The notes under the pieces were generated by a model that saw nothing but the letters and a program-made list of their open reading frames with translations, was not told the origin of the DNA and made no database searches. The position numbers and the translations under genes were made by a program. Shown here one piece after another: positions 10,014 to 25,729 of a stretch of DNA of 27,147 nucleotides; positions within the stretch are counted from its first letter, which is position 1, and every line of letters begins with the position of its first letter. Source of the stretch: a virus; the UHGV virus genome UHGV-1347488, one strand, 5' to 3'.

Positions 10014-10201
10014 TATGGATTTGCCAGGTTCAAATGAACCTTACGCCCTGTATTACCGTTCTGCTAAAATTGGTGGAACGGATTCTATATTGTTCAGCTT
10101 AGACCAAATTTGGCACAAGCTGATTATATATTGTTGGACTTCCGCCAAAGTTGGTGTAAGTCCACTTTTTGCTCTGTTGGTAAATTTACTAATGAACCAT
10201 A

Positions 10202-10858
10202 TCATTCATCCTTTTCTACAAACTCCCATCCCTCCGGTAAGGTTCCGGCAGCAGATGTATCTTCTTCACGATATAAGACCTCATCCAAATACTGCTCGAC
10301 CATGCTCTTGCCTGTCTGCTCTCTGTACATGGCACTGATGATGGATGTATAGTGAACGGTAAACTCACCCAGGTCATCATTATGATAATCCCAGAGGAAT
10401 TTATATACATTATCTGCTCCGATTGGTTGTTTCCAGTCATACTTTTGTAAATCAGCCATCGTTGAAAAATAATCTTTGCAGCACCATTTTGGGCCGTCAT
10501 AATTCTTCGTGATTGGAAAAATCTGAACCAGATTCTCTAAAGTCAGCGCACCTAAATACTGCAAGGCCATCTGGATCCGGTCATAGACTTCTTGCGTTTT
10601 CTCAGCTACATAATCATCATCTTCACATGACAGATTGATAAACTGTACTGCTGCGTATGCCGCCTTTTTAAGTATATCCTGTGGAACATTCGTTTCTAAG
10701 ACAGACGCATCATCACCATATTTATCAATGATTTCTTGCAGCACCGATGAGAACTGTCTGCCCCACATCTGCTGCCATTTCAGGCCCCGAATATGACACT
10801 CTCGCTGCTCAATCTGTCTCAGAAGTTCATTCTGCTCCTTGTTATCAATGATTTCCAT
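10202..10858 (-). CDS. Hypothetical protein (218 aa), last gene of the ClpX operon
   Basis: ATG with RBS GAGGGGAG starting right after the ClpX stop codon; no recognisable motif. Confidence 0.7.
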   Translation of the reverse strand: MEIIDNKEQNELLRQIEQRECHIRGLKWQQMWGRQFSSVLQEIIDKYGDDASVLETNVPQDILKKAAYAAVQFINLSCEDDDYVAEKTQEVYDRIQMALQYLGALTLENLVQIFPITKNYDGPKWCCKDYFSTMADLQKYDWKQPIGADNVYKFLWDYHNDDLGEFTVHYTSIISAMYREQTGKSMVEQYLDEVLYREEDTSAAGTLPEGWEFVEKDE

Positions 10859-10877
10859 GCTATCACTCCCCTCTCTC

Positions 10878-12098
10878 TTACGCCAACTGTTTTCCTCTAG
10901 CGGAATAAACTTCTGCCCCGGTCAGACCATCAACACACTGTTCAGTGATAAGCACCCTCTTTGCACCCTTCAAGTCTGGCACAGAAAACATAACATCTTG
11001 CATGGCTGACTCAATGATGCTGCGCAGACCTCTTGCACCAGATTTTTGCTTAATTGCTTTTTCCGCAATTTTCCTTAAAGCTTCGTCTGAAAACTCCAGA
11101 TTGACCTTATCCAACTTCATCAGTTCGGCATACTGTTTGGTCAGTGCATTCTTCGGTTCTGTAAGGATACGAAGCAAAGCATCTTCATCAAGTGGCATTA
11201 AGGTTGCCAACACCGGAATACGCCCCATTAACTCAGGAATTAGTCCGTAGTGGACTAAATCGGCATCAGTTATTTTGCTGAAATCGAAACTATCTGAAGG
11301 TGATGTGTTCACTGAATTGAACCCGATGGAATTACCAGAAGATTCCTGACCTACGATTTTCTCAATCCCATCAAATGCCCCACCAACGATAAATAGAATG
11401 TTGGAAGTATCCATACGCACTGTAGCCGCATTTGGGTGTTTGCGTCCGCCGCTTAGCGGTACATCAGCTATGGTTCCCTCCAGAATCTTTAAGAGTGCCT
11501 GTTGTACTCCTTCACCGGAAACATCACGAGTGATAGAAGTGTTCTCGCCTTTTCTGGAAAGCTTATCAATCTCGTCAACGTAAACGATCCCCCGCTGTGC
11601 CAGGTCAAGATCGTGATTGGCGGCATCATATAAGCGGAGTAGGACATTCTCGACATCCTCGCCAACATAACCAGATTCGGTCAGACAAGTGGCATCAGAC
11701 ATAGCAAAGGGAACGCCTAAGAATTTTGCCAGTGATTGAACCAGATATGTCTTACCGCTTCCTGTTGGCCCTACAAGCATGATGTTTGACTTCTGGATTT
11801 CTACACAGGATTTTGATTTCTGTGAGATGCGCTTGTAATGATTGTAAACCGCCACAGACAGAATCTTCTTTGCATCGTTCTGGCCGATGACATACTCGTC
11901 AAGATGCTTCTTAATCTGACTAGGAGTTGCCAACTTGAAGCTGTTTGATTTTGCGGATTCTTCCTTGTCCTGAAATGCTTCTTCTGCTTGCATAGAACAC
12001 TCACGGCAGAGACAGCCATATTTACCCTTGATGAGATAGTCAACCTGAGACTCGTCCTTGCCGCACATAAAACAGTAGTTAATGCGTTTTGTTGCCAT
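10878..12098 (-). CDS. clpX: ATP-dependent Clp protease ATP-binding subunit ClpX (phage-borne)
   Basis: N-terminal C4 zinc-binding domain (CFMCGK…CLCRECS), Walker [17 protein letters not shown] motif, Walker B VYVDEIDK, sensor and arginine-finger region (SGARGLR); ATG with RBS AAAGGAGAG. Confidence 0.9.
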
Positions 12099-12118
12099 AT
12101 ATGTAACTCTCCTTTGCT

Positions 12119-12934
12119 CTAGTACATGTCAAAATACATCTTCTGTTTGTTCTTGAATGTTAATGTATATTTTCTAATGGAAGTAACCCAGTCTGCCTTA
12201 GACATTTCAATAGATGATATTTGCTTTTCAAATACTTCAATAAAGCATTCAACCTTATTATCACTGTCTTCCCATCCATGCTTAAATGCAATTTTGTTAG
12301 AATAAAAACGAATTGGTTTTGTATCAAACACTAAATCCTGTTTGATTCTGATATTATGATCAAAGTATGTAACCGTGATATTCGGACGGTACATATCCTG
12401 ATTGTTCTTTAACCGCTTAACAAATTCATCCCACCATGTCGTACCGCATTGTTCCATTCTTTGAATATAAGCAAAAAATTTTCCAATAATTACATTGATA
12501 TTTTCATCCAAACATTTTTTATATGCATCTGGATAGTCTCTGGCATAAATTTCATTATTGCTCATACCACTGTAACTAATTTTTCTGCTCTTATGGAGCA
12601 TATCCTTAATCAACTTATATAAATTATCATATAGCTCTTTTGTGAGAAGTCCGGTCTTTGATGCACATTCAATTAACAACTTTTTGACTTCACTATTTTT
12701 CACCATTTTTGCAATTTCATCATTATTCAATGTACAGAACTGATACGTCTTTCCACTATATAAATATCCACATTTAGGATACAACTCTCCTTCTCGATAA
12801 TAAAAATCCATTGGTATATAATTTCGACAACCGATGCGGCTCTCTCTGTCATGGTCATGGTATTTCTGACACACGCCATATAATCTATTTAATTTACACA
12901 TATCACACAATTCTTTTTCTACTAATAAAAACAT
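12119..12934 (-). CDS. Hypothetical Cys-rich protein (271 aa), first gene of the ClpX operon
   Basis: ATG with RBS AAGGAGAAAGG; N-terminal Cys/His cluster (CDMCK…CQKYHDHD…C); stop 21 nt before the ClpX start. Confidence 0.7.
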   Translation of the reverse strand: MFLLVEKELCDMCKLNRLYGVCQKYHDHDRESRIGCRNYIPMDFYYREGELYPKCGYLYSGKTYQFCTLNNDEIAKMVKNSEVKKLLIECASKTGLLTKELYDNLYKLIKDMLHKSRKISYSGMSNNEIYARDYPDAYKKCLDENINVIIGKFFAYIQRMEQCGTTWWDEFVKRLKNNQDMYRPNITVTYFDHNIRIKQDLVFDTKPIRFYSNKIAFKHGWEDSDNKVECFIEVFEKQISSIEMSKADWVTSIRKYTLTFKNKQKMYFDMY

Positions 12935-13940
12935 AATGCCTTTCTCCTTTATTTTGATATATGTATATAGAAGATTCTCTATCTGGAATCTTGTTTTATC
13001 GTGATGATGAAGGTTACGGCAAATTTACCAGAACCTTTGTATGGGGATCGGGTTTACCAAATTCGGTAAAGTTGGTTTATCATGCTCCAATTATGGATAA
13101 TATTATGTAAACAAAATAGACATATCCAGAAATGGACATTAATCTTCGATATCTATTTTTGCTATTTGTCCGCATATTTCCCATCTGTCCGTATATCCAC
13201 CATCGGGAACAGAACATTAAGAAACACCTGTATTTCCTAGCGTTTCTCATCGTACCAACTAGAAACTGAATCATCTGCCAACGCCAGACTAGCACTCTGA
13301 GCCAAAACAGTCTTAATGTCTTTAATTCCCAGTATTTATATAGGATTTAAGCATTTCCAAGTAAATTCAGGCTTATCGGTAGTGACATCGCAAAAAGGAA
13401 GTAAATCCTTACCTTTTCAGCATTGGTATCCCATAAATTGAACATCTAAAAATTCAAAAATTTTATACTTTTGACCGTAAAACCCTTGTAATCCTTACAT
13501 TTTTACGATACCGATTTTCTTTCCGAAGTCTCCATGATTTTTCACATTTTTGCGATAAACCTATCCGGCACGATTTCTGGCCCAGTTATTCCAACGCTCA
13601 CACTTAGCTTCTGCTTTCTCCTGTGTATTAAATACACACCGTCTACGGATACCAACACAAGAATCAGTATCAGATACATGAATCTTTACTCTTAGATTCT
13701 CCTTGCCTAGATCAGATACAACAATTCCAGTCTGCACCTTCCAGATGCGTCGATTCTTCCGTTTAACCAGAAACCTTTGAATGAACCACACCTGCTGTCC
13801 CTCTGTAAATACCAACTGAATCACTCTCCTTTTGATTTGGACATTTTGTTTATGTCTAAATTTGCACGATAGCTCACCCAAATGAGCCTTATTTTACTGG
13901 ACTTTAGACACATTCTATAGGGAAAAATGGGACCATGGAA

Positions 13941-14305
13941 TTTGCATTATCCAAAGTCCTACAAAGCTAGTAAATAAGCCATTTTTACGATTATATATAC
14001 GCAAAATTCATACCTATCATTTTGCATTATTCCGTTCATTTCATACATTGTTCACTCATTGAATTTTTAAAATTCTTATTGCTTTGCCATCGAAAATGTG
14101 CTAAAATAAGTTCAACTAAAAAGATTATGCAAATGATTTTTTAAGTTATTTTTTTGCATTATAGAAAGTCGAGAAACCCTTGATTTTACTAGCTTTTAGA
14201 CACAATTAACATGCAAAATTCATACCATGGATTTGCATTATAGAAAGTCGGAAATCCCTTGTAATTACTGGGTTTTGGTGACAATTAACATGCAAAATTC
14301 ATACC
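13941..14305. repeat. Array of about 74-bp direct repeats with 5-bp spacers (period about 79 bp); candidate origin or iteron/promoter array
   Basis: Units 13941..14014, 14153..14226 and 14232..14305 each start TTTGCATTAT and end (A/C)GCAAAATTCATACC; spacers ATGGA/TATCA; a diverged longer unit at 14020..14152 and a partial unit at about 13900..13940. The last two units are about 85% identical. Confidence 0.7.
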
Positions 14306-14342
14306 TATGTATAGAATGTATTATATACCGATAGGTATACGT

Positions 14343-20072: not shown

Positions 20073-21179
20073 CTACTTACTGATTCTTCTGGCTTTCAGT
20101 TGCTCTAACGCTGACAGGCCGCTACTAGTCGGCTTATGCTCTGGTTCCTTCTTGACCGCAAACACACTGGATGTTCTGGCGGTGCGCACCTGTGTAAGAG
20201 CCTTCAAAGAGTTCTGCACGCTCTCAGCTTCTTTTTCTACGGATTCTGCTAACGCATCAATCCGGCTGTACGGCATCACCAGGCCGCTAAGGATCACCAC
20301 ATTTTCACCGGAATCTGAAACATATCCGTGATATTCGGTCGGTGCTGTACCTACGGCTTTCCGGAGTTCCGCAATATCAATCTTGCTCTCTTTTGCTGAT
20401 ACCGCTTCGGAAATACCCATAATGCTGACCGTCTTATCTTCCCGCTGTGCAAAAATATTGCTCTCACGGGTCAGAATATCCACGATATAACCCGTTGTGC
20501 CATTGGCTGCATTAGTGGCAACGATTACAGAAAATGACGGACAATGTAAGCAGCTTTCAATCTCTGCCAAATCCATATTGCCGTCCTGGGATTTATTGTT
20601 AATGCAAAGCACTGCTGTCATCAGTCTGGCGAATGCTCGGTTGATCTGCAACTTCTCACCGGAGTTATTGTCCAGCATGAAAATGCTTCCCAAACTCGGC
20701 TTTAATTCCTCGATTTCCTCAAAGGTCTGTCTGGCATTATCTCTGATTTTTAAGGATTCCGTATCTGCCGGAATAACCACAACCAGACACACTTTGTATC
20801 CCATCTCTAACAGGATTCTTGCCAACATTGGCCCCATTGCAGAGCCGGTTCCACCGCCCATTGAAAATGCGATAAATACTGTGCTGCCCTCGATTATGTA
20901 CTGCTGCAATTCATCCAGAATACTATCAACATTTTCCGCAAGTGCATCTAAGCTGCGCTCCCTGTTGCCTGCTGCCCCATTACAGTTTTTCACATGGATT
21001 TTGTGGGACAGATTAACCGCCGATAAATCCTCGGTACTGGTGTTGATACCAACAAAGGATACGCTGTCTTTGCTGCCATCCAGTTCCATAACCTTCTTTT
21101 CAACCTCAGAAATGACCTGGCATCCGCACTGACCGCATCCGATAAAGGTAGCTTTTAATCTCGTATTTAATTTTTTCAT
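20073..21179 (-). CDS. Tubulin/FtsZ-superfamily GTPase, TubZ/PhuZ-like (putative partition or positioning cytoskeletal protein)
   Basis: T1-loop-like GCGQCGCQ near the N-terminus and tubulin signature-like FSMGGGTGSAMGP; internal ATG (MKKLNT…) with RBS AGAGGAG 7 nt upstream, chosen over the track's 21206 start; begins 4 nt after the stop of the upstream small HTH gene. Confidence 0.7.
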   Translation of the reverse strand: MKKLNTRLKATFIGCGQCGCQVISEVEKKVMELDGSKDSVSFVGINTSTEDLSAVNLSHKIHVKNCNGAAGNRERSLDALAENVDSILDELQQYIIEGSTVFIAFSMGGGTGSAMGPMLARILLEMGYKVCLVVVIPADTESLKIRDNARQTFEEIEELKPSLGSIFMLDNNSGEKLQINRAFARLMTAVLCINNKSQDGNMDLAEIESCLHCPSFSVIVATNAANGTTGYIVDILTRESNIFAQREDKTVSIMGISEAVSAKESKIDIAELRKAVGTAPTEYHGYVSDSGENVVILSGLVMPYSRIDALAESVEKEAESVQNSLKALTQVRTARTSSVFAVKKEPEHKPTSSGLSALEQLKARRISK

Positions 21180-21183
21180 AGAC

Positions 21184-21444
21184 TTACTCCTCTTGTTCCA
21201 TCTCATCCATCCATTGAATTCCTGTGGAAGTAATATAGTAGGTTTTGGCGTTTAACTGGTTCATACCATATTTGATGTATCCCAGATTAATCAGCTCCTT
21301 TAGATGCTTATAGATAACCTTGTAAGAGTATTTGATACCAATCTCTGCAAGACCCTCTTCAATCATCTTCTGAGTAGCCGCAACTAACTTGCTTCTTGCT
21401 TCCGCATGGAATAGGACGTTGAGAATTTCGTAATTTGTACGCAA
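21184..21444 (-). CDS. Small winged-HTH protein upstream of the tubulin-like gene (TubR-like by position and size)
   Basis: 86-aa ORF with TTG start and AGGAAGG RBS; helix-wing segment YKVIYKHLKELINLGYIKYG…NAKTYYITSTG; arrangement resembles tubR-tubZ operons. Confidence 0.45.
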   Translation of the reverse strand: MRTNYEILNVLFHAEARSKLVAATQKMIEEGLAEIGIKYSYKVIYKHLKELINLGYIKYGMNQLNAKTYYITSTGIQWMDEMEQEE

Positions 21445-21970: not shown

Positions 21971-23083
21971 ATGCTAGGAAAAAAAATTATTTTAAATGAT
22001 GCTATCCGTGATTCTATCACTAGATTTAGGAAAAGCAAAATGAAAGAACACCCCGAATTAACCGCAGATGGCATTTCAGAAAAAATAGGAAGATCTAAGT
22101 CTTGGTTATCTCAAGTAGNNNNNNNNNNNNNNNNNNNNNNNNNNNNNNNNNNNNNNNNNNNNNNNNNNNNNNNNNGAGCAGATTTCAATTTTAAATATGA
22201 ATATGATGCAGTAGCCAAACGTGTAGATAATGAAATCATGTTAATAAATGCATTCATTAAACATGGTATTGCAGATGAAAACGGTAATATACTTGATTTC
22301 CATGAGAGTCTACGATTAGAGCAATGTAGAGGTTTTCTTCGACAAGCCGGAAAAATGACAGATTGTTATATTAAGGAATATTTACAAAACCCAATTCAGG
22401 AAATTGAAAAAAAAATTAAAACTGAGATTCATAATGTTTTAATTGAAATTGTTCGATGGATAAACAGAGCTTTTGATGACACTGCTGATTTATTTTCTGA
22501 TGAAGTGTCAACTAAAAATTTATATTGTTTACTGGAAACGGCATATACTATTTTTAATGCTCATTGTGATTATTTCGGCCTAAATCCTTTAACCGCCACA
22601 GATACTGATTTAAAAACCTTAAAGAACAAATTAAATACGGATTGTTTTATAAAACCACGAACGGTATTAAAACCTCTTGATGATTATACAGAATCAGAGT
22701 TCAAGGAAGTGGTTAAAAATTTTTCTTCCGAAGAATATATGCAATGGAAAAACAAGCGCATTTATATTGGTGATGATCCATTTCCTATGACTGTTGGTTT
22801 TATTGATAGTAAAAAAGAACGGCATACCCCACTACACTATATAACTTATCCAGATTTAAATAAAGCTACCGGATTATCTGAAAAGGAATATCTCTATATC
22901 ATTAAGCAAGTTTATTTACAATTTGATATTTTTTATAAAGATTGTCAATCGTTAAGAGATGATTTGGAATTTTATAAAGATGAAAATGATCAGTATTACG
23001 ATGAAATTCAAGAATTAAATGAACGTATAAATGAACTCACCAATAAACTTAATACTGAGTCAGAGAAGCCACCAGAGGAATAA
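21971..23083 (+). CDS. HTH-domain protein with large C-terminal domain of unknown function (370 aa; reading frame interrupted by an N run)
   Basis: RBS GAGGTGAG; N-terminal XRE-like segment (…LTADGISEKIGRSKSWLSQV…); C-terminal coiled-coil-like region; very AT-rich codon usage. Confidence 0.65.
   Translation: MLGKKIILNDAIRDSITRFRKSKMKEHPELTADGISEKIGRSKSWLSQVXXXXXXXXXXXXXXXXXXXXADFNFKYEYDAVAKRVDNEIMLINAFIKHGIADENGNILDFHESLRLEQCRGFLRQAGKMTDCYIKEYLQNPIQEIEKKIKTEIHNVLIEIVRWINRAFDDTADLFSDEVSTKNLYCLLETAYTIFNAHCDYFGLNPLTATDTDLKTLKNKLNTDCFIKPRTVLKPLDDYTESEFKEVVKNFSSEEYMQWKNKRIYIGDDPFPMTVGFIDSKKERHTPLHYITYPDLNKATGLSEKEYLYIIKQVYLQFDIFYKDCQSLRDDLEFYKDENDQYYDEIQELNERINELTNKLNTESEKPPEE
22119..22175. other. 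Run of 57 N (assembly gap or masked segment) inside the 21971..23083 ORF
   Basis: Literal n characters; length is a multiple of 3, so the frame is preserved. Confidence 0.95.
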
Positions 23084-23188: not shown

Positions 23189-24055
23189 TTATTTCAAATA
23201 CAATGGATGGCTATTATCGTCCGCTTCCTTCTCAAAGTCACCATTGAATTTATATTGACCCTGGTGATCGGGTTTACTATTATAAACTTCATAGCCACCA
23301 TTTTCAAAATCTGTGGATAAATACACATCCAATTTGGGACTTTTAAAAACCTGTCTTTTAGGAGATTGTCCATCTCTCTTTTTAGCTTTTCGCTTATTTA
23401 AAGCGGTAAGTTTAGAATCGTATGTATACTTATTTCGTTCTGCAACTTCCATTCCAATTTTATGAAGGGTTGCTATTTTATCATCAATTGAATTAGAACG
23501 TAATATTTCAGATCTCCATTCGTTATATCCATTACACAATACAGATGCTGGAAACTTATTATTAAATGATGGGACAGAAATTTGTATTAATTCATCTTGT
23601 TGAATCCATCTTTTAATATTTGAATCAACTTCCTGATCAAAATTTCCTATAAAAAATATTTTATCATTCAATTGTTTTTGTTGTAACTCTCTATGCCGTC
23701 TATCTTTAATGTATGGGATTACAACAATATTATCTTCTGATATACTTAGAATATATTTTATTTTTCCAACAAAAGCCTTCGTAAAACCGAGATTATTCAA
23801 AGCAATGTCTTCAGCTTCTGACACAAGACCTGCATCATATTTATCTACCTTATGAGTTTTTAAAATTGAATGATTTACCTCTCTGAACCTGGAAGATCTG
23901 TTATATGACTTTGTGGAAGTTGCAAAAGGTTCAAACATAACTAATTTTGCATTGAAAAAATTTTCAACAACTAATAAAAAATCATTCAAGTATTTTTGCT
24001 GTTCAATGCTTGTTTGATAAAATTTTTCATCGATAAGTATTTTATATGTTGGCAT
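23189..24055 (-). CDS. Unknown-function partner protein of the ABC ATPase (288 aa; candidate effector of a two-gene defence-like module)
   Basis: ATG (MPTYKILIDEKF…) with RBS CAGGAGAG; start lies 1 nt after the ATPase stop codon; basic C-terminal region (KRKAKKRDGQSPKRQ); no HNH-type Cys/His pattern. Confidence 0.7.
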   Translation of the reverse strand: MPTYKILIDEKFYQTSIEQQKYLNDFLLVVENFFNAKLVMFEPFATSTKSYNRSSRFREVNHSILKTHKVDKYDAGLVSEAEDIALNNLGFTKAFVGKIKYILSISEDNIVVIPYIKDRRHRELQQKQLNDKIFFIGNFDQEVDSNIKRWIQQDELIQISVPSFNNKFPASVLCNGYNEWRSEILRSNSIDDKIATLHKIGMEVAERNKYTYDSKLTALNKRKAKKRDGQSPKRQVFKSPKLDVYLSTDFENGGYEVYNSKPDHQGQYKFNGDFEKEADDNSHPLYLK

Positions 24056-24056
24056 A

Positions 24057-25487
24057 TCAACTCTCCTGTTTCTGCAAATTTCTATATCCAACATCTATGA
24101 TTTTAGCTGTTTCATTTGAAAATTGATAAAAGAAATTTTCATTTTCACATAATGCCCCGTCAACTTCATCAATCACTATAGGTGTTATAAAAGACATACC
24201 TAATTCATTCTGATCTACAAAATAGATTTGAATTTTATCACGTACCTCTACATCCTCCATATAGCGTCTAACAATTCTATTTACAAAATGATCACTATGA
24301 GTTTCAATAACAACAGATTTATCATGTGTGGAGAGGGATAATAAAAAATCTGCCATTCGCATTTGCATTTTAGGATGCAGGTGAATTTCTGGCTGTTCCA
24401 AAATCAAGGTTTGATTCGAAGACATAATAATTCCTTCGGCTAAAATTGGCAATGACTGACTAATTCCAAATCCAACATCAACCAAATTATGTTTATTTAT
24501 TCTTACTTTTACTAAATCTTGTTGTCTATTATCAAGGAATAGCGTACCTAATTCTAAATATTGCATCCATGAACCAATTAAATCAATAAATTTATTTGAT
24601 TCACATACTGTCTGTGACGGCACATAATTATCTTCCGATTCAGGAGCCATAACACCTACCACAGTATTTTTTTGTTTATTCTTCAATAACAGAGGGGTAT
24701 CTTCACCGGATACACCAACATCAACAACCTTTTTGTCTGCGATATAACGTCTCATAGGATTTTCTCTCAATGGAGCAATATATTGTAATTGAATATACTG
24801 AGATGGAAGAATACTAAAAATTGAAGTTAAAGTTGGAATAAACAATTTTGTAGAAGGATTCATACGTTCTTCGTAAATACTATTTAAAGTCATATTACGA
24901 AAATAACAGATAGCATTGTTAATATTAAAATCTCCTAAATTCCCAGCAACATCTGGGATTTGTGTTCCGCGAACAGTATATGTCTTTTTCCCATTTCTGC
25001 ACAATTCAATTCGTGAATTGATTGAGCCAGTTTTTAATTCTACTTCAATATTAACATCAATGGCATGTAATTTATTTGCATATAAAGAAGCGCCACTATT
25101 ATCAATAGAAACACAATAATTGATGATGAATTTTTCGACATCGTTTCTATAATATAATCTATTCAAATCACGAAACTGAACGTTATCTTTTGAAGCGGTT
25201 TCTTTTGAACGTTTAAGTTCAAAAGTATTGCTAATCGTAAAGAAATTTTCTGAATGTTGATCACACAAAATCTCAGAAAATGTTCCATTGTCTATATATT
25301 TACCGTTAAATAACATTTGGTCGGATGTATTAGTATCTTCAAAAGTTTGCTTTAACATCAGCAAGCTTTTTAAAATAGAACTTTTACCGCTGCTATTTAC
25401 ACCGCACAATACGGTCAGTGGCGCAATCTCTATATCGGTCTTATCTTTAAAGCACTTATAATTTTCCAAACTTATAGATTTCAGCAT
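24057..25487 (-). CDS. AAA15/AAA21-type ABC ATPase (OLD/AriA/PtuA/AbiLi-like)
   Basis: N-terminal I.SI.L.NYKCF with Walker A GVNSSGKS; Q-loop-like QYIAPLRE; signature-like GFGISQSLPILAEG; Walker B LILEQPEIHLHP; H-loop ETHSDH. ATG (MLKSISL…) preceded by GGAGGT at 6 nt. Confidence 0.8.
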   Translation of the reverse strand: MLKSISLENYKCFKDKTDIEIAPLTVLCGVNSSGKSSILKSLLMLKQTFEDTNTSDQMLFNGKYIDNGTFSEILCDQHSENFFTISNTFELKRSKETASKDNVQFRDLNRLYYRNDVEKFIINYCVSIDNSGASLYANKLHAIDVNIEVELKTGSINSRIELCRNGKKTYTVRGTQIPDVAGNLGDFNINNAICYFRNMTLNSIYEERMNPSTKLFIPTLTSIFSILPSQYIQLQYIAPLRENPMRRYIADKKVVDVGVSGEDTPLLLKNKQKNTVVGVMAPESEDNYVPSQTVCESNKFIDLIGSWMQYLELGTLFLDNRQQDLVKVRINKHNLVDVGFGISQSLPILAEGIIMSSNQTLILEQPEIHLHPKMQMRMADFLLSLSTHDKSVVIETHSDHFVNRIVRRYMEDVEVRDKIQIYFVDQNELGMSFITPIVIDEVDGALCENENFFYQFSNETAKIIDVGYRNLQKQES

Positions 25488-25729
25488 TCCCATACCTCCA
25501 TAATCTCCTTTCATTTTACCAAAATTTACCAGTTACTACAATGAGAACGTGTGTATATAGATTCGATATTTTAAAATATTTTTTTATGAAAGAAGCTGCC
25601 GGAATATACCAACGGCTCCCGCATTATTCCTTTCCAATCTTCCACTTAGCAAGTTCTTCCCCCAGGACCCAGCTCAATTCTTTGTACTGCTCCGGTGTGA
25701 GGGTCGTGCCGCATTTTTCTTCCACATTC

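Follow-up and report, generated by a model that had tools for sequence, protein, structure and literature searches.

A phage-lineage ClpX with no ClpP nearby, predicted to work with the ClpP of its host, and a candidate partner family in phages that encode a YonO-type RNA polymerase

We analysed a stretch of 27,147 nucleotides (nt) from the virus genome UHGV-1347488, called the window throughout, and within it positions 10202-12934, where three co-directional and closely spaced open reading frames (ORFs) on the minus strand encode a protein of 271 amino acids (aa), a ClpX of 406 aa and a protein of 218 aa. An AGGAG-type Shine-Dalgarno site precedes the ATG of all three genes alike, the spacing is 20 nt between the 271-aa gene and clpX and 19 nt between clpX and the 218-aa gene, and no terminator-like site was found between them on the minus strand. 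The window is phage DNA: it encodes a 1367-aa tape measure protein, a YomN-like virion protein and a YonO-like single-chain RNA polymerase (RNAP), and in addition a ParB-like protein, a primase-polymerase, a cold-shock-domain protein and a tubulin/FtsZ-family protein. No close DNA relative of the window exists among GenBank phages, and Rfam and tRNA scans of it gave no matches. Our analysis shows that this ClpX belongs to a lineage carried by phages, and suggests that it probably acts together with ClpP supplied by the host.

The 406-aa protein is a full-length, motif-intact ClpX. It scores 570 bits against the NCBIfam equivalog NF003745 (cut-off 359) and 548 bits against TIGR00382 (cut-off 371), it contains the Pfam domains zf-C4_ClpX (28.8 bits, cut-off 27), AAA_2 and ClpB_D2-small, and its alignment with solved ClpX structures runs from one end to the other, with E values of about 1e-130. 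Walker A and B, the pore-1 loop GYVG, pore-2, the RKH and IGF loops, the arginine finger, sensor-2 and the zinc ligands are all present (C9, C12, C31 and C34; GPTGSGKT at 110-117, GYVG at 143-146, DEIDK at 175-179, RKH at 219-221, IGF at 258-260, GRIP at 292-295 and GARGLR at 354-359), and the four cysteines align with C15, C18, C37 and C40 of Escherichia coli ClpX. The initial annotation, which was made from the letters of the sequence, had described a complete ClpX, with zinc-binding N-domain and AAA+ module, that is borne by a phage and tightly coupled to both of its neighbours; each of these points holds, and in the comparison with cellular ClpX the IGF-loop and pore-loop residues are all kept.

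How long has the gene been in phages? We compared it with cellular ClpX from a tblastn scan of 185,579 species, one genome per species, the cellular set being the best 80 loci of that scan. Among the matches listed, identity to the window ClpX does not exceed 59%, and a cellular ClpX closer than this is unlikely; these matches come mostly from Clostridia, with proteobacteria nearly as close. Full-length alignments give 51-56% identity (median 53.6%) between the window ClpX and the 80 cellular proteins, which are 63% identical among themselves. The ClpX of a sister phage, L003, is 95% identical, with a ratio of nonsynonymous to synonymous substitution (dN/dS) of 0.07 at a dS of 0.35, and the window gene is thus under purifying selection. 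Its G+C content at third codon positions (GC3) is 0.447, that of the 218-aa gene is 0.452, and both resemble the values of phage core genes. Because of the low identity to cellular ClpX, the low dN/dS and the GC3 matching the phage core, we conclude that the window ClpX is neither a fragment nor a recent capture from a host; a decayed host copy, which the initial annotation had thought not evident from the Walker motifs, is rejected on the full length and the intact motifs as well.

The closest relatives outside the sister phage are instead the ClpX proteins of other phages with a YonO-like polymerase, which are 60-64% identical to the window protein and thereby closer to it than every cellular ClpX listed. 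Together with the window and L003 they make up a phage-only clade of 18 members, monophyletic in 98 of 100 neighbour-joining bootstraps. The clade came to light through a profile scan of IMG/VR with the family of the 218-aa protein, and had been missed by a scan with the single ClpX sequence; single-sequence IMG/VR scans with the 218-aa and 271-aa proteins likewise gave no matches. The profile scan returned 80 loci, and a full-length ClpX on the same strand lies 1-3 kb upstream in 14 of the 15 best. Homologues of the 218-aa protein at 35-39% identity are found downstream of ClpX in other contigs, and these contigs have a gene for a YonO-like polymerase too. Since ClpX keeps a fixed genomic position across phages in which it is only about 60% identical, we regard it, from these comparisons, as a long-standing core gene of uncultured Firmicutes phages that also encode a YonO-type RNAP.

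Within the clade the catalytic machinery is conserved: the four zinc cysteines, K125, Y153, E185, RKH, I/MGF, R307 and R370 are kept in 18 of 18 members. The tripeptide through which ClpX docks on ClpP reads IGF in 17 and MGF in one, and it stays while the rest of the IGF loop diverges. At the same time, several positions that are 93-100% invariant in cellular ClpX have been replaced, namely C44A (18/18), R261E/D (16/18), T131S, S193G and P409A, of which R261E/D reverses the charge at the base of the IGF loop; R261 is the E. coli position, and its counterpart in the window protein is E252. Two further changes touch surfaces that could bear on specificity. In the hairpin of the N-domain, that is, the zinc-binding domain (ZBD), LIAGPSVYIC has become LI(K/R)GKYGYIC, so that AGP is changed to KGK, and in the flank before the RKH loop VPPQGGRKHPQQEF has become VPVTGSRKHPQAET, with VP(V/L)(T/S)G(S/G) in place of VPPQGG.

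The order of genes is equally constant. In each of the 17 mapped loci of the clade, namely the window, L003 and 15 distant relatives, ClpX is followed by a variable slot, a member of the 218-aa family and a YonO-like RNAP, so that the polymerase is conserved downstream of the pair across the clade. More fully, the core order is an 84-aa gene (family F5, in eight loci counting the window and L003), ClpX, zero to two unrelated genes, the 218-family gene, an optional gene and the YonO-like RNAP. In six distant relatives about 45 nt separate the 84-aa gene from clpX downstream of it, and in the window the 271-aa gene intervenes; the 84-aa protein has no Pfam or PADLOC match. The cargo of the slot between ClpX and the 218-family gene varies by phage, being a DUF3102 protein, ParB-like proteins of 390-417 aa or proteins of no assigned family, and the slot after the 218-family gene sometimes holds a protein with a SEC-C/CxxCxxCC zinc motif (examples from around the 218-family gene are L117 2937-3905 and L124 5740-6471). 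What is missing is clpP. With ClpP of Bacillus subtilis and E. coli as tblastn queries we found none in the window, in an extension of about 10 kb examined in addition to it, or in any phage locus fetched, in agreement with the initial annotation; as a positive control, the same queries detected clpP directly upstream of clpX in 78 of the 80 cellular loci. In the window that position is held by the 271-aa gene.

We turn now to the downstream neighbour. The 218-aa protein matches phrog_6329 (E 2.7e-40, residues 29-196), and its homologues fall into 59 clusters, all annotated as hypothetical, from Firmicutes phages and prophages (the prophage hosts being Bacillus, Lactococcus, Brevibacillus and Paenibacillus) and from metagenomes. 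A ClpX gene lies 0-3 kb upstream of the family gene in 17 of 17 clade loci mapped. Between the window and L003 its gene has a dN/dS of 0.06. An AlphaFold2 model, with a mean predicted local distance difference test score (pLDDT) of 83, is predicted to be all-helical with residues 201-218 disordered, and has no significant structural match in the PDB or BFVD; the residues invariant in the family (F114, P115, K118, G122, K128, D129, F131 and Y158) cluster in loop regions. No Pfam family was found for any of 54 members, nor any similarity of sequence or fold to the E. coli protein SspB. Many members nevertheless share one feature with SspB. They carry a C-terminal extension that ends, at the extreme end of the chain, in KPKQSHLRIVK, SHLKIVK, PRYLKVIK or RPRYLKPVQ, and the tails of the ClpX-linked clade end in NKPSFMQIVK, with MQIVK as a relaxed form of the motif, or in NHLRIVK. 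The family pattern RPxxL(K/R)(I/V)VK resembles the ClpX-docking tail of SspB, which ends ...RGGRPALRVVK. The motif L[KR]x[VILA] occurs within the last 12 residues of 19 of 56 distinct family tails, compared with 30 of 653 tails of control ORFs, which, because the tails are homologous, is to be read as a conserved feature of the family and not as an independent statistical test. The window protein and its close relatives have neither the L(K/R)x(V/I)K tail nor the conserved stretch that precedes it in the family; their end is acidic, ...LPEGWEFVEKDE, and in the window protein this acidic tail is short.

The upstream 271-aa gene occurs only in the lineage of the window, where it is placed between the 84-aa gene and clpX. 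At the more distant clade loci it was found upstream of ClpX in none of the 15 mapped, the 84-aa gene or other genes being there instead. It is AT-rich, with a GC3 of 0.316 as against that of clpX given above, and the copies in the window and in L003 are 99.6% identical with a dS of 0.007, compared with a dS of 0.35-0.81 for adjacent genes. A profile search of 1.84 billion representatives yielded six matches only, two of them full length, and the homologues (about 48% identity) have accessory genes around them, toxin-antitoxin and TIR genes included, and no ClpX in the vicinity. The protein matched no family or fold; near its N terminus a conserved CxxC...C...H...C cluster hints at a zinc knuckle, and modelling gives a weak PH-like beta sandwich for the C-terminal half. 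On the present comparisons the gene is a rare, recently exchanged, lineage-specific accessory insertion, co-transcribed by position and unrelated to ClpX, and as a partner of ClpX the 271-aa protein is ruled out by its distribution, composition and mosaicism. The initial annotation had proposed that the flanking proteins could be adaptors or substrates of ClpX. That proposal fails for the upstream protein; for the downstream one it retains its force at the level of the family, which is co-conserved with ClpX at 17 loci and has an SspB-like tail, but is weakened for the window's own copy, which lacks that tail.

What, then, would a phage gain from such a ClpX? The explanation that we favour, and to which we give a probability of roughly one half, is that the protein is a functional ClpX of a phage lineage which docks on host ClpP as a hybrid protease whose choice of substrates is altered by the phage. 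Docking on host ClpP is the most likely mode of action, since the I/MGF tripeptide is conserved while the remainder of its loop diverges, and since no phage ClpP was seen. Rings of phage ClpX would bind host ClpP, and the substrates of the resulting hybrid would be set by the phage through the altered ZBD, a docking platform for adaptors and substrates, and through the flanks of the RKH loop. The 218-family protein is the best candidate for a partner of ClpX, with which it may be in physical contact, be it as adaptor, anti-adaptor or substrate. Because clpX has the replication genes on one side and the late-gene polymerase on the other, ClpX is probably made in mid-infection, and the hybrid protease would then appear between replication and late transcription.

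Several considerations weigh against this explanation. Binding to ClpP, or to any substrate, is a prediction from sequence, and R261E, which reverses the charge where that site adjoins the IGF loop, could make docking weaker. A phage ClpP could be encoded elsewhere in the genome, beyond the window and the adjoining 10 kb, and in Bacillus phage G a ClpP does adjoin ClpX (PMC12484599). Other objections concern the link to the 218-family protein. Within a single group of phages, common descent can keep genes in the same order without any functional coupling, and the slot of zero to two genes parts ClpX from the 218-family gene in most relatives. Moreover, the family occurs in phages without a ClpX of their own: the homologues of Bacillus phage Gamma (gp31, which ends in ...RYLKPVQ) and Lactococcus phage 98202 lie in an early/replication region with no ClpX at that locus, and L116 and L177 are further loci of the family without a nearby ClpX.

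Three other explanations compete with or overlap this one. The phage ClpX could instead act alone, as a remodeller independent of ClpP, and take apart a repressor, replication or recombinase complex, or polymers of FtsZ or tubulin; its target might be host FtsZ, with the effect of blocking division, or the tubulin-like protein of the phage itself. The absence of ClpP from every phage locus fetched fits such a role, as do the position of clpX beside replication genes (primase-polymerase and ParB-like), the presence of a tubulin/FtsZ-family gene, and the clade-wide R261E next to the IGF loop, which could lower affinity for ClpP. E. coli ClpX disassembles the MuA transpososome, which sets a precedent for remodelling, and FtsZ is a known substrate of E. 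coli ClpXP (PMC3983244). We consider this explanation possible but rather improbable, since an I/MGF tripeptide that is invariant in 18 of 18 members of the clade in a diverging loop is the pattern expected under selection for docking on ClpP, and our analysis pointed to no specific target. Least probable, and in our estimate quite unlikely, is that the gene serves as a generic booster of proteostasis which supplies more of the usual ClpX activity to meet the protein load that infection brings, and has neither special substrates nor a functional link to its neighbours. Every canonical feature of ClpX is kept, and jumbo phages carry ClpX, sometimes together with ClpP, for which a general chaperone or quality-control role has been discussed (PMC7824862, PMC12484599). 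However, a generic copy should look like that of the host, while the clade has fixed replacements that are concentrated in the N-domain and the RKH flanks, and the gene is a core gene at a fixed position in phages that are only about 60% identical.

The remaining alternative starts from the neighbour rather than from ClpX, and overlaps with the hybrid-protease explanation. It holds that the tails of the 218 family dock on the ZBD of ClpX and either deliver substrates or block host ClpX; in the second case the phage ClpX, altered in its N-domain, would replace the blocked host ClpX on ClpP. The conserved peptide at the extreme C terminus of many members, its likeness to the end of SspB, its frequency relative to control ORFs and the genomic linkage to phage ClpX at 17 loci all speak for docking, and SPO1 Gp53, a phage-encoded, adaptor-like protein for ClpCP, is a precedent (PMC6873191). 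Yet the match to SspB comes down to five or six residues in homologous tails, the main ClpX-linked clade has MQIVK and not L(K/R), no similarity of sequence or fold to SspB was found, and the window protein and its close relatives have no such tail. In addition, the family is usually found in replication modules, and the tail could bind a replication protein instead. We therefore hold this alternative to be a tentative one, somewhat ahead of the solitary remodeller, as a statement about the family; for the copy in the window it is less probable. A bolder version would join it to the hybrid protease: the phrog_6329 family, with some 60 clusters in Firmicutes phages, would consist of unrecognised proteins that dock on the ClpX ZBD by an SspB-like tail and, in one phage group, have acquired as a partner a phage ClpX with a remodelled N-domain, the two jointly hijacking host ClpP, so that substrates chosen by the phage are delivered, host ClpX is shut out, or both. 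We put this forward as a conjecture that has the odds clearly against it.

The surroundings of the block are summarised in Table 1. The stretch 12935-14342 is nearly free of ORFs, and it contains the four repeat copies, which lie between the primase-polymerase gene and the 84-aa gene, that is, upstream of the latter. On the minus strand each copy has TTACAA and TATAAT-like hexamers 17 nt apart, similar to the -35 and -10 elements of sigma-70 promoters, flanked by the words TTTGCAT/ATGCAAA; promoter-like matches on that strand run from 14265 to 14237, 14054 to 14026 and 13974 to 13946. The repeats may be tandem promoters, operators or iterons serving the block. At its other end, the start codon of a 50-aa ORF and the stop codon of the 218-aa gene share bases in the sequence ATGA; none of the 16 related loci that were clustered has an equivalent of this ORF, which may be spurious. 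The YonO-like RNAP matches the Pfam RdRP family PF05183 (E 1e-14) and phrog_8308 (E 7e-148), and by tblastn it is 32.6% identical to yonO of phage SPbeta over 75% of the query (E 1e-90); a C-terminal extension of about 200 aa past the YonO-aligned part ends in a Cys-rich CxxC...C motif.

Table 1. Features of the block and of other parts of the window discussed in the text (minus sign, minus strand; plus sign, plus strand).
Feature	Position	Strand	Start codon	Remarks
271-aa ORF, 10 Cys	12119-12934	-	ATG	
clpX, 406 aa, C4 zinc-binding N-domain and AAA+ module	10878-12098	-	ATG	member of phage-specific ClpX clade
218-aa all-alpha protein, phrog_6329 family	10202-10858	-	ATG	candidate ClpX partner
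84-aa conserved small protein	13561-13815	-	TTG	called as a gene in relatives
YonO-like single-chain RNA polymerase, 999 aa	6088-9087	-		PF05183 and phrog_8308
Four repeat copies, 74-80 nt	13861-14305	-		repeat search and promoter-like matches; function putative
50-aa ORF	10053-10205	-	ATG	
Tubulin/FtsZ-family protein	20073-21206	-		Pfam Tubulin, E 1.5e-21; PhuZ-type PHROG
NsnB-like protein	24057-25514	-		PADLOC NsnB, E 4e-65; AAA_15/OLD-type ATPase
NsnC-like protein	23189-24094	-		PADLOC NsnC, E 1e-9
370-aa ORF	21971-23083	+		GC3 0.19; no match

Other parts of the genome offer further observations. The tubulin-like protein could serve in genome segregation or positioning, and it is conceivable as a client of ClpX; the tubulin-encoding phage of the window is known only from contigs of 19-46 kb. 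The AT-rich pair resembling NsnB and NsnC may be a phage-borne system of anti-phage defence, and the 370-aa plus-strand ORF lies beside it. In the extensions, the opposite strand just beyond position 1 of the window encodes a large serine recombinase (Recombinase, Zn_ribbon_recom, DUF4368; L010 14650-15600, L009 14650-15975) that directly follows the tape measure gene, and three independent assemblies break in or near this recombinase. Past the right end of the window (L012 117-962, 2703-5286) lie an ArdC-like anti-restriction protein (ArdcN and MPTase-PolyVal), two sigma-factor-like genes, GmrSD_N, two HNH endonucleases and one HEPN protein. In about 37 kb of the phage we saw neither head nor packaging genes, implying that either the layout of the genome is unusual or the genome is much larger than the contigs. 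In the sister phage (L003 16354-20660) the tape measure protein is far longer (more than 2570 aa) and has weak choline-binding repeats (Pfam Choline_bind_2/3), which hints at a host with choline-decorated cell-wall polymers.

Why should a phage-owned ClpX matter? ClpXP controls repressors, antitoxins, cell division and stress regulators, and a phage with its own substrate selector could thus reprogramme host proteolysis in a single step. A phage-only clade in which the substrate- and adaptor-selecting parts of ClpX carry fixed changes amounts, moreover, to a natural experiment in the rewiring of ClpX specificity. If the docking of the tail family were confirmed, a widespread group of Firmicutes phage proteins would be the first known examples, among phages with Gram-positive hosts, of ClpX adaptors or anti-adaptors. 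In the literature searched we found neither a phage-encoded ClpX in non-jumbo phages nor a phage ClpX adaptor, and a distinct ClpX clade of YonO phages that is ClpP-less, is changed in its specificity elements and is accompanied by a co-conserved partner family with SspB-like tails appears to be undescribed there.

A ClpX in a phage is, on the other hand, not new in kind, since it is documented in Bacillus phage G (gp258), the Prevotella Lak phages and Agrobacterium phage Atu_ph07, and to call it out of the ordinary would overstate the case (PMC7824862, PMC12484599). The ClpX proteins of these jumbo phages are likewise phage-encoded and full-length, and have been considered as possible translocases or assembly chaperones (PMC7824862). 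They are, however, only 47-53% identical to the window protein and so belong to a different clade. In phage G the ClpP gp257 adjoins ClpX (PMC12484599), while the phage group of the window shows none; and the clade of the window, unlike the jumbo-phage proteins, comes from YonO phages known only from contigs of 35-97 kb (IMGVR_UViG_3300029497_000135 is one of 97 kb) and has the 218 family and YonO as conserved neighbours. With cellular ClpX such as that of E. coli (PDB 8e91) the window protein shares its length class, its domain order and all functional motifs; it differs in its modest identity, the lack of clpP upstream, the clade-specific replacements, the altered ZBD hairpin and RKH flank, and in being encoded by a phage.

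As to the phages themselves, the nearest resemblance is to the SPbeta-like group, with which the window shares a YonO homologue, a YomN-like protein and a large serine recombinase beside the block. The order of genes around YonO differs from that of the SPbeta map. No SPbeta-type phage is among the listed matches to the window ClpX or the 218-aa protein, and in the INPHARED phage records nothing exceeds 60% identity to the window's ClpX, 218-aa protein, 271-aa protein or YonO.

The proposed partner invites comparison with two known systems. SspB consists of a folded domain, a disordered region and a short end that binds the ClpX N-domain (PMC9963277), and at the level of the family the 218-aa proteins are built alike, with a folded body and then a C-terminal extension that ends in a basic-hydrophobic peptide similar to the RPALRVVK-COOH of SspB. 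Peptide arrays have given LKxh as the consensus for binding to the ZBD (PMC7226468), which the family tail fits, the copy in the window lacking that tail. The closest parallel in concept is SPO1 Gp53, which acts on ClpCP of B. subtilis (PMC6873191) and has in common with the present system that a phage protein redirects a Clp protease of the host. Gp53, however, is an unrelated protein that targets ClpC, whereas the phage of the window supplies the unfoldase itself.

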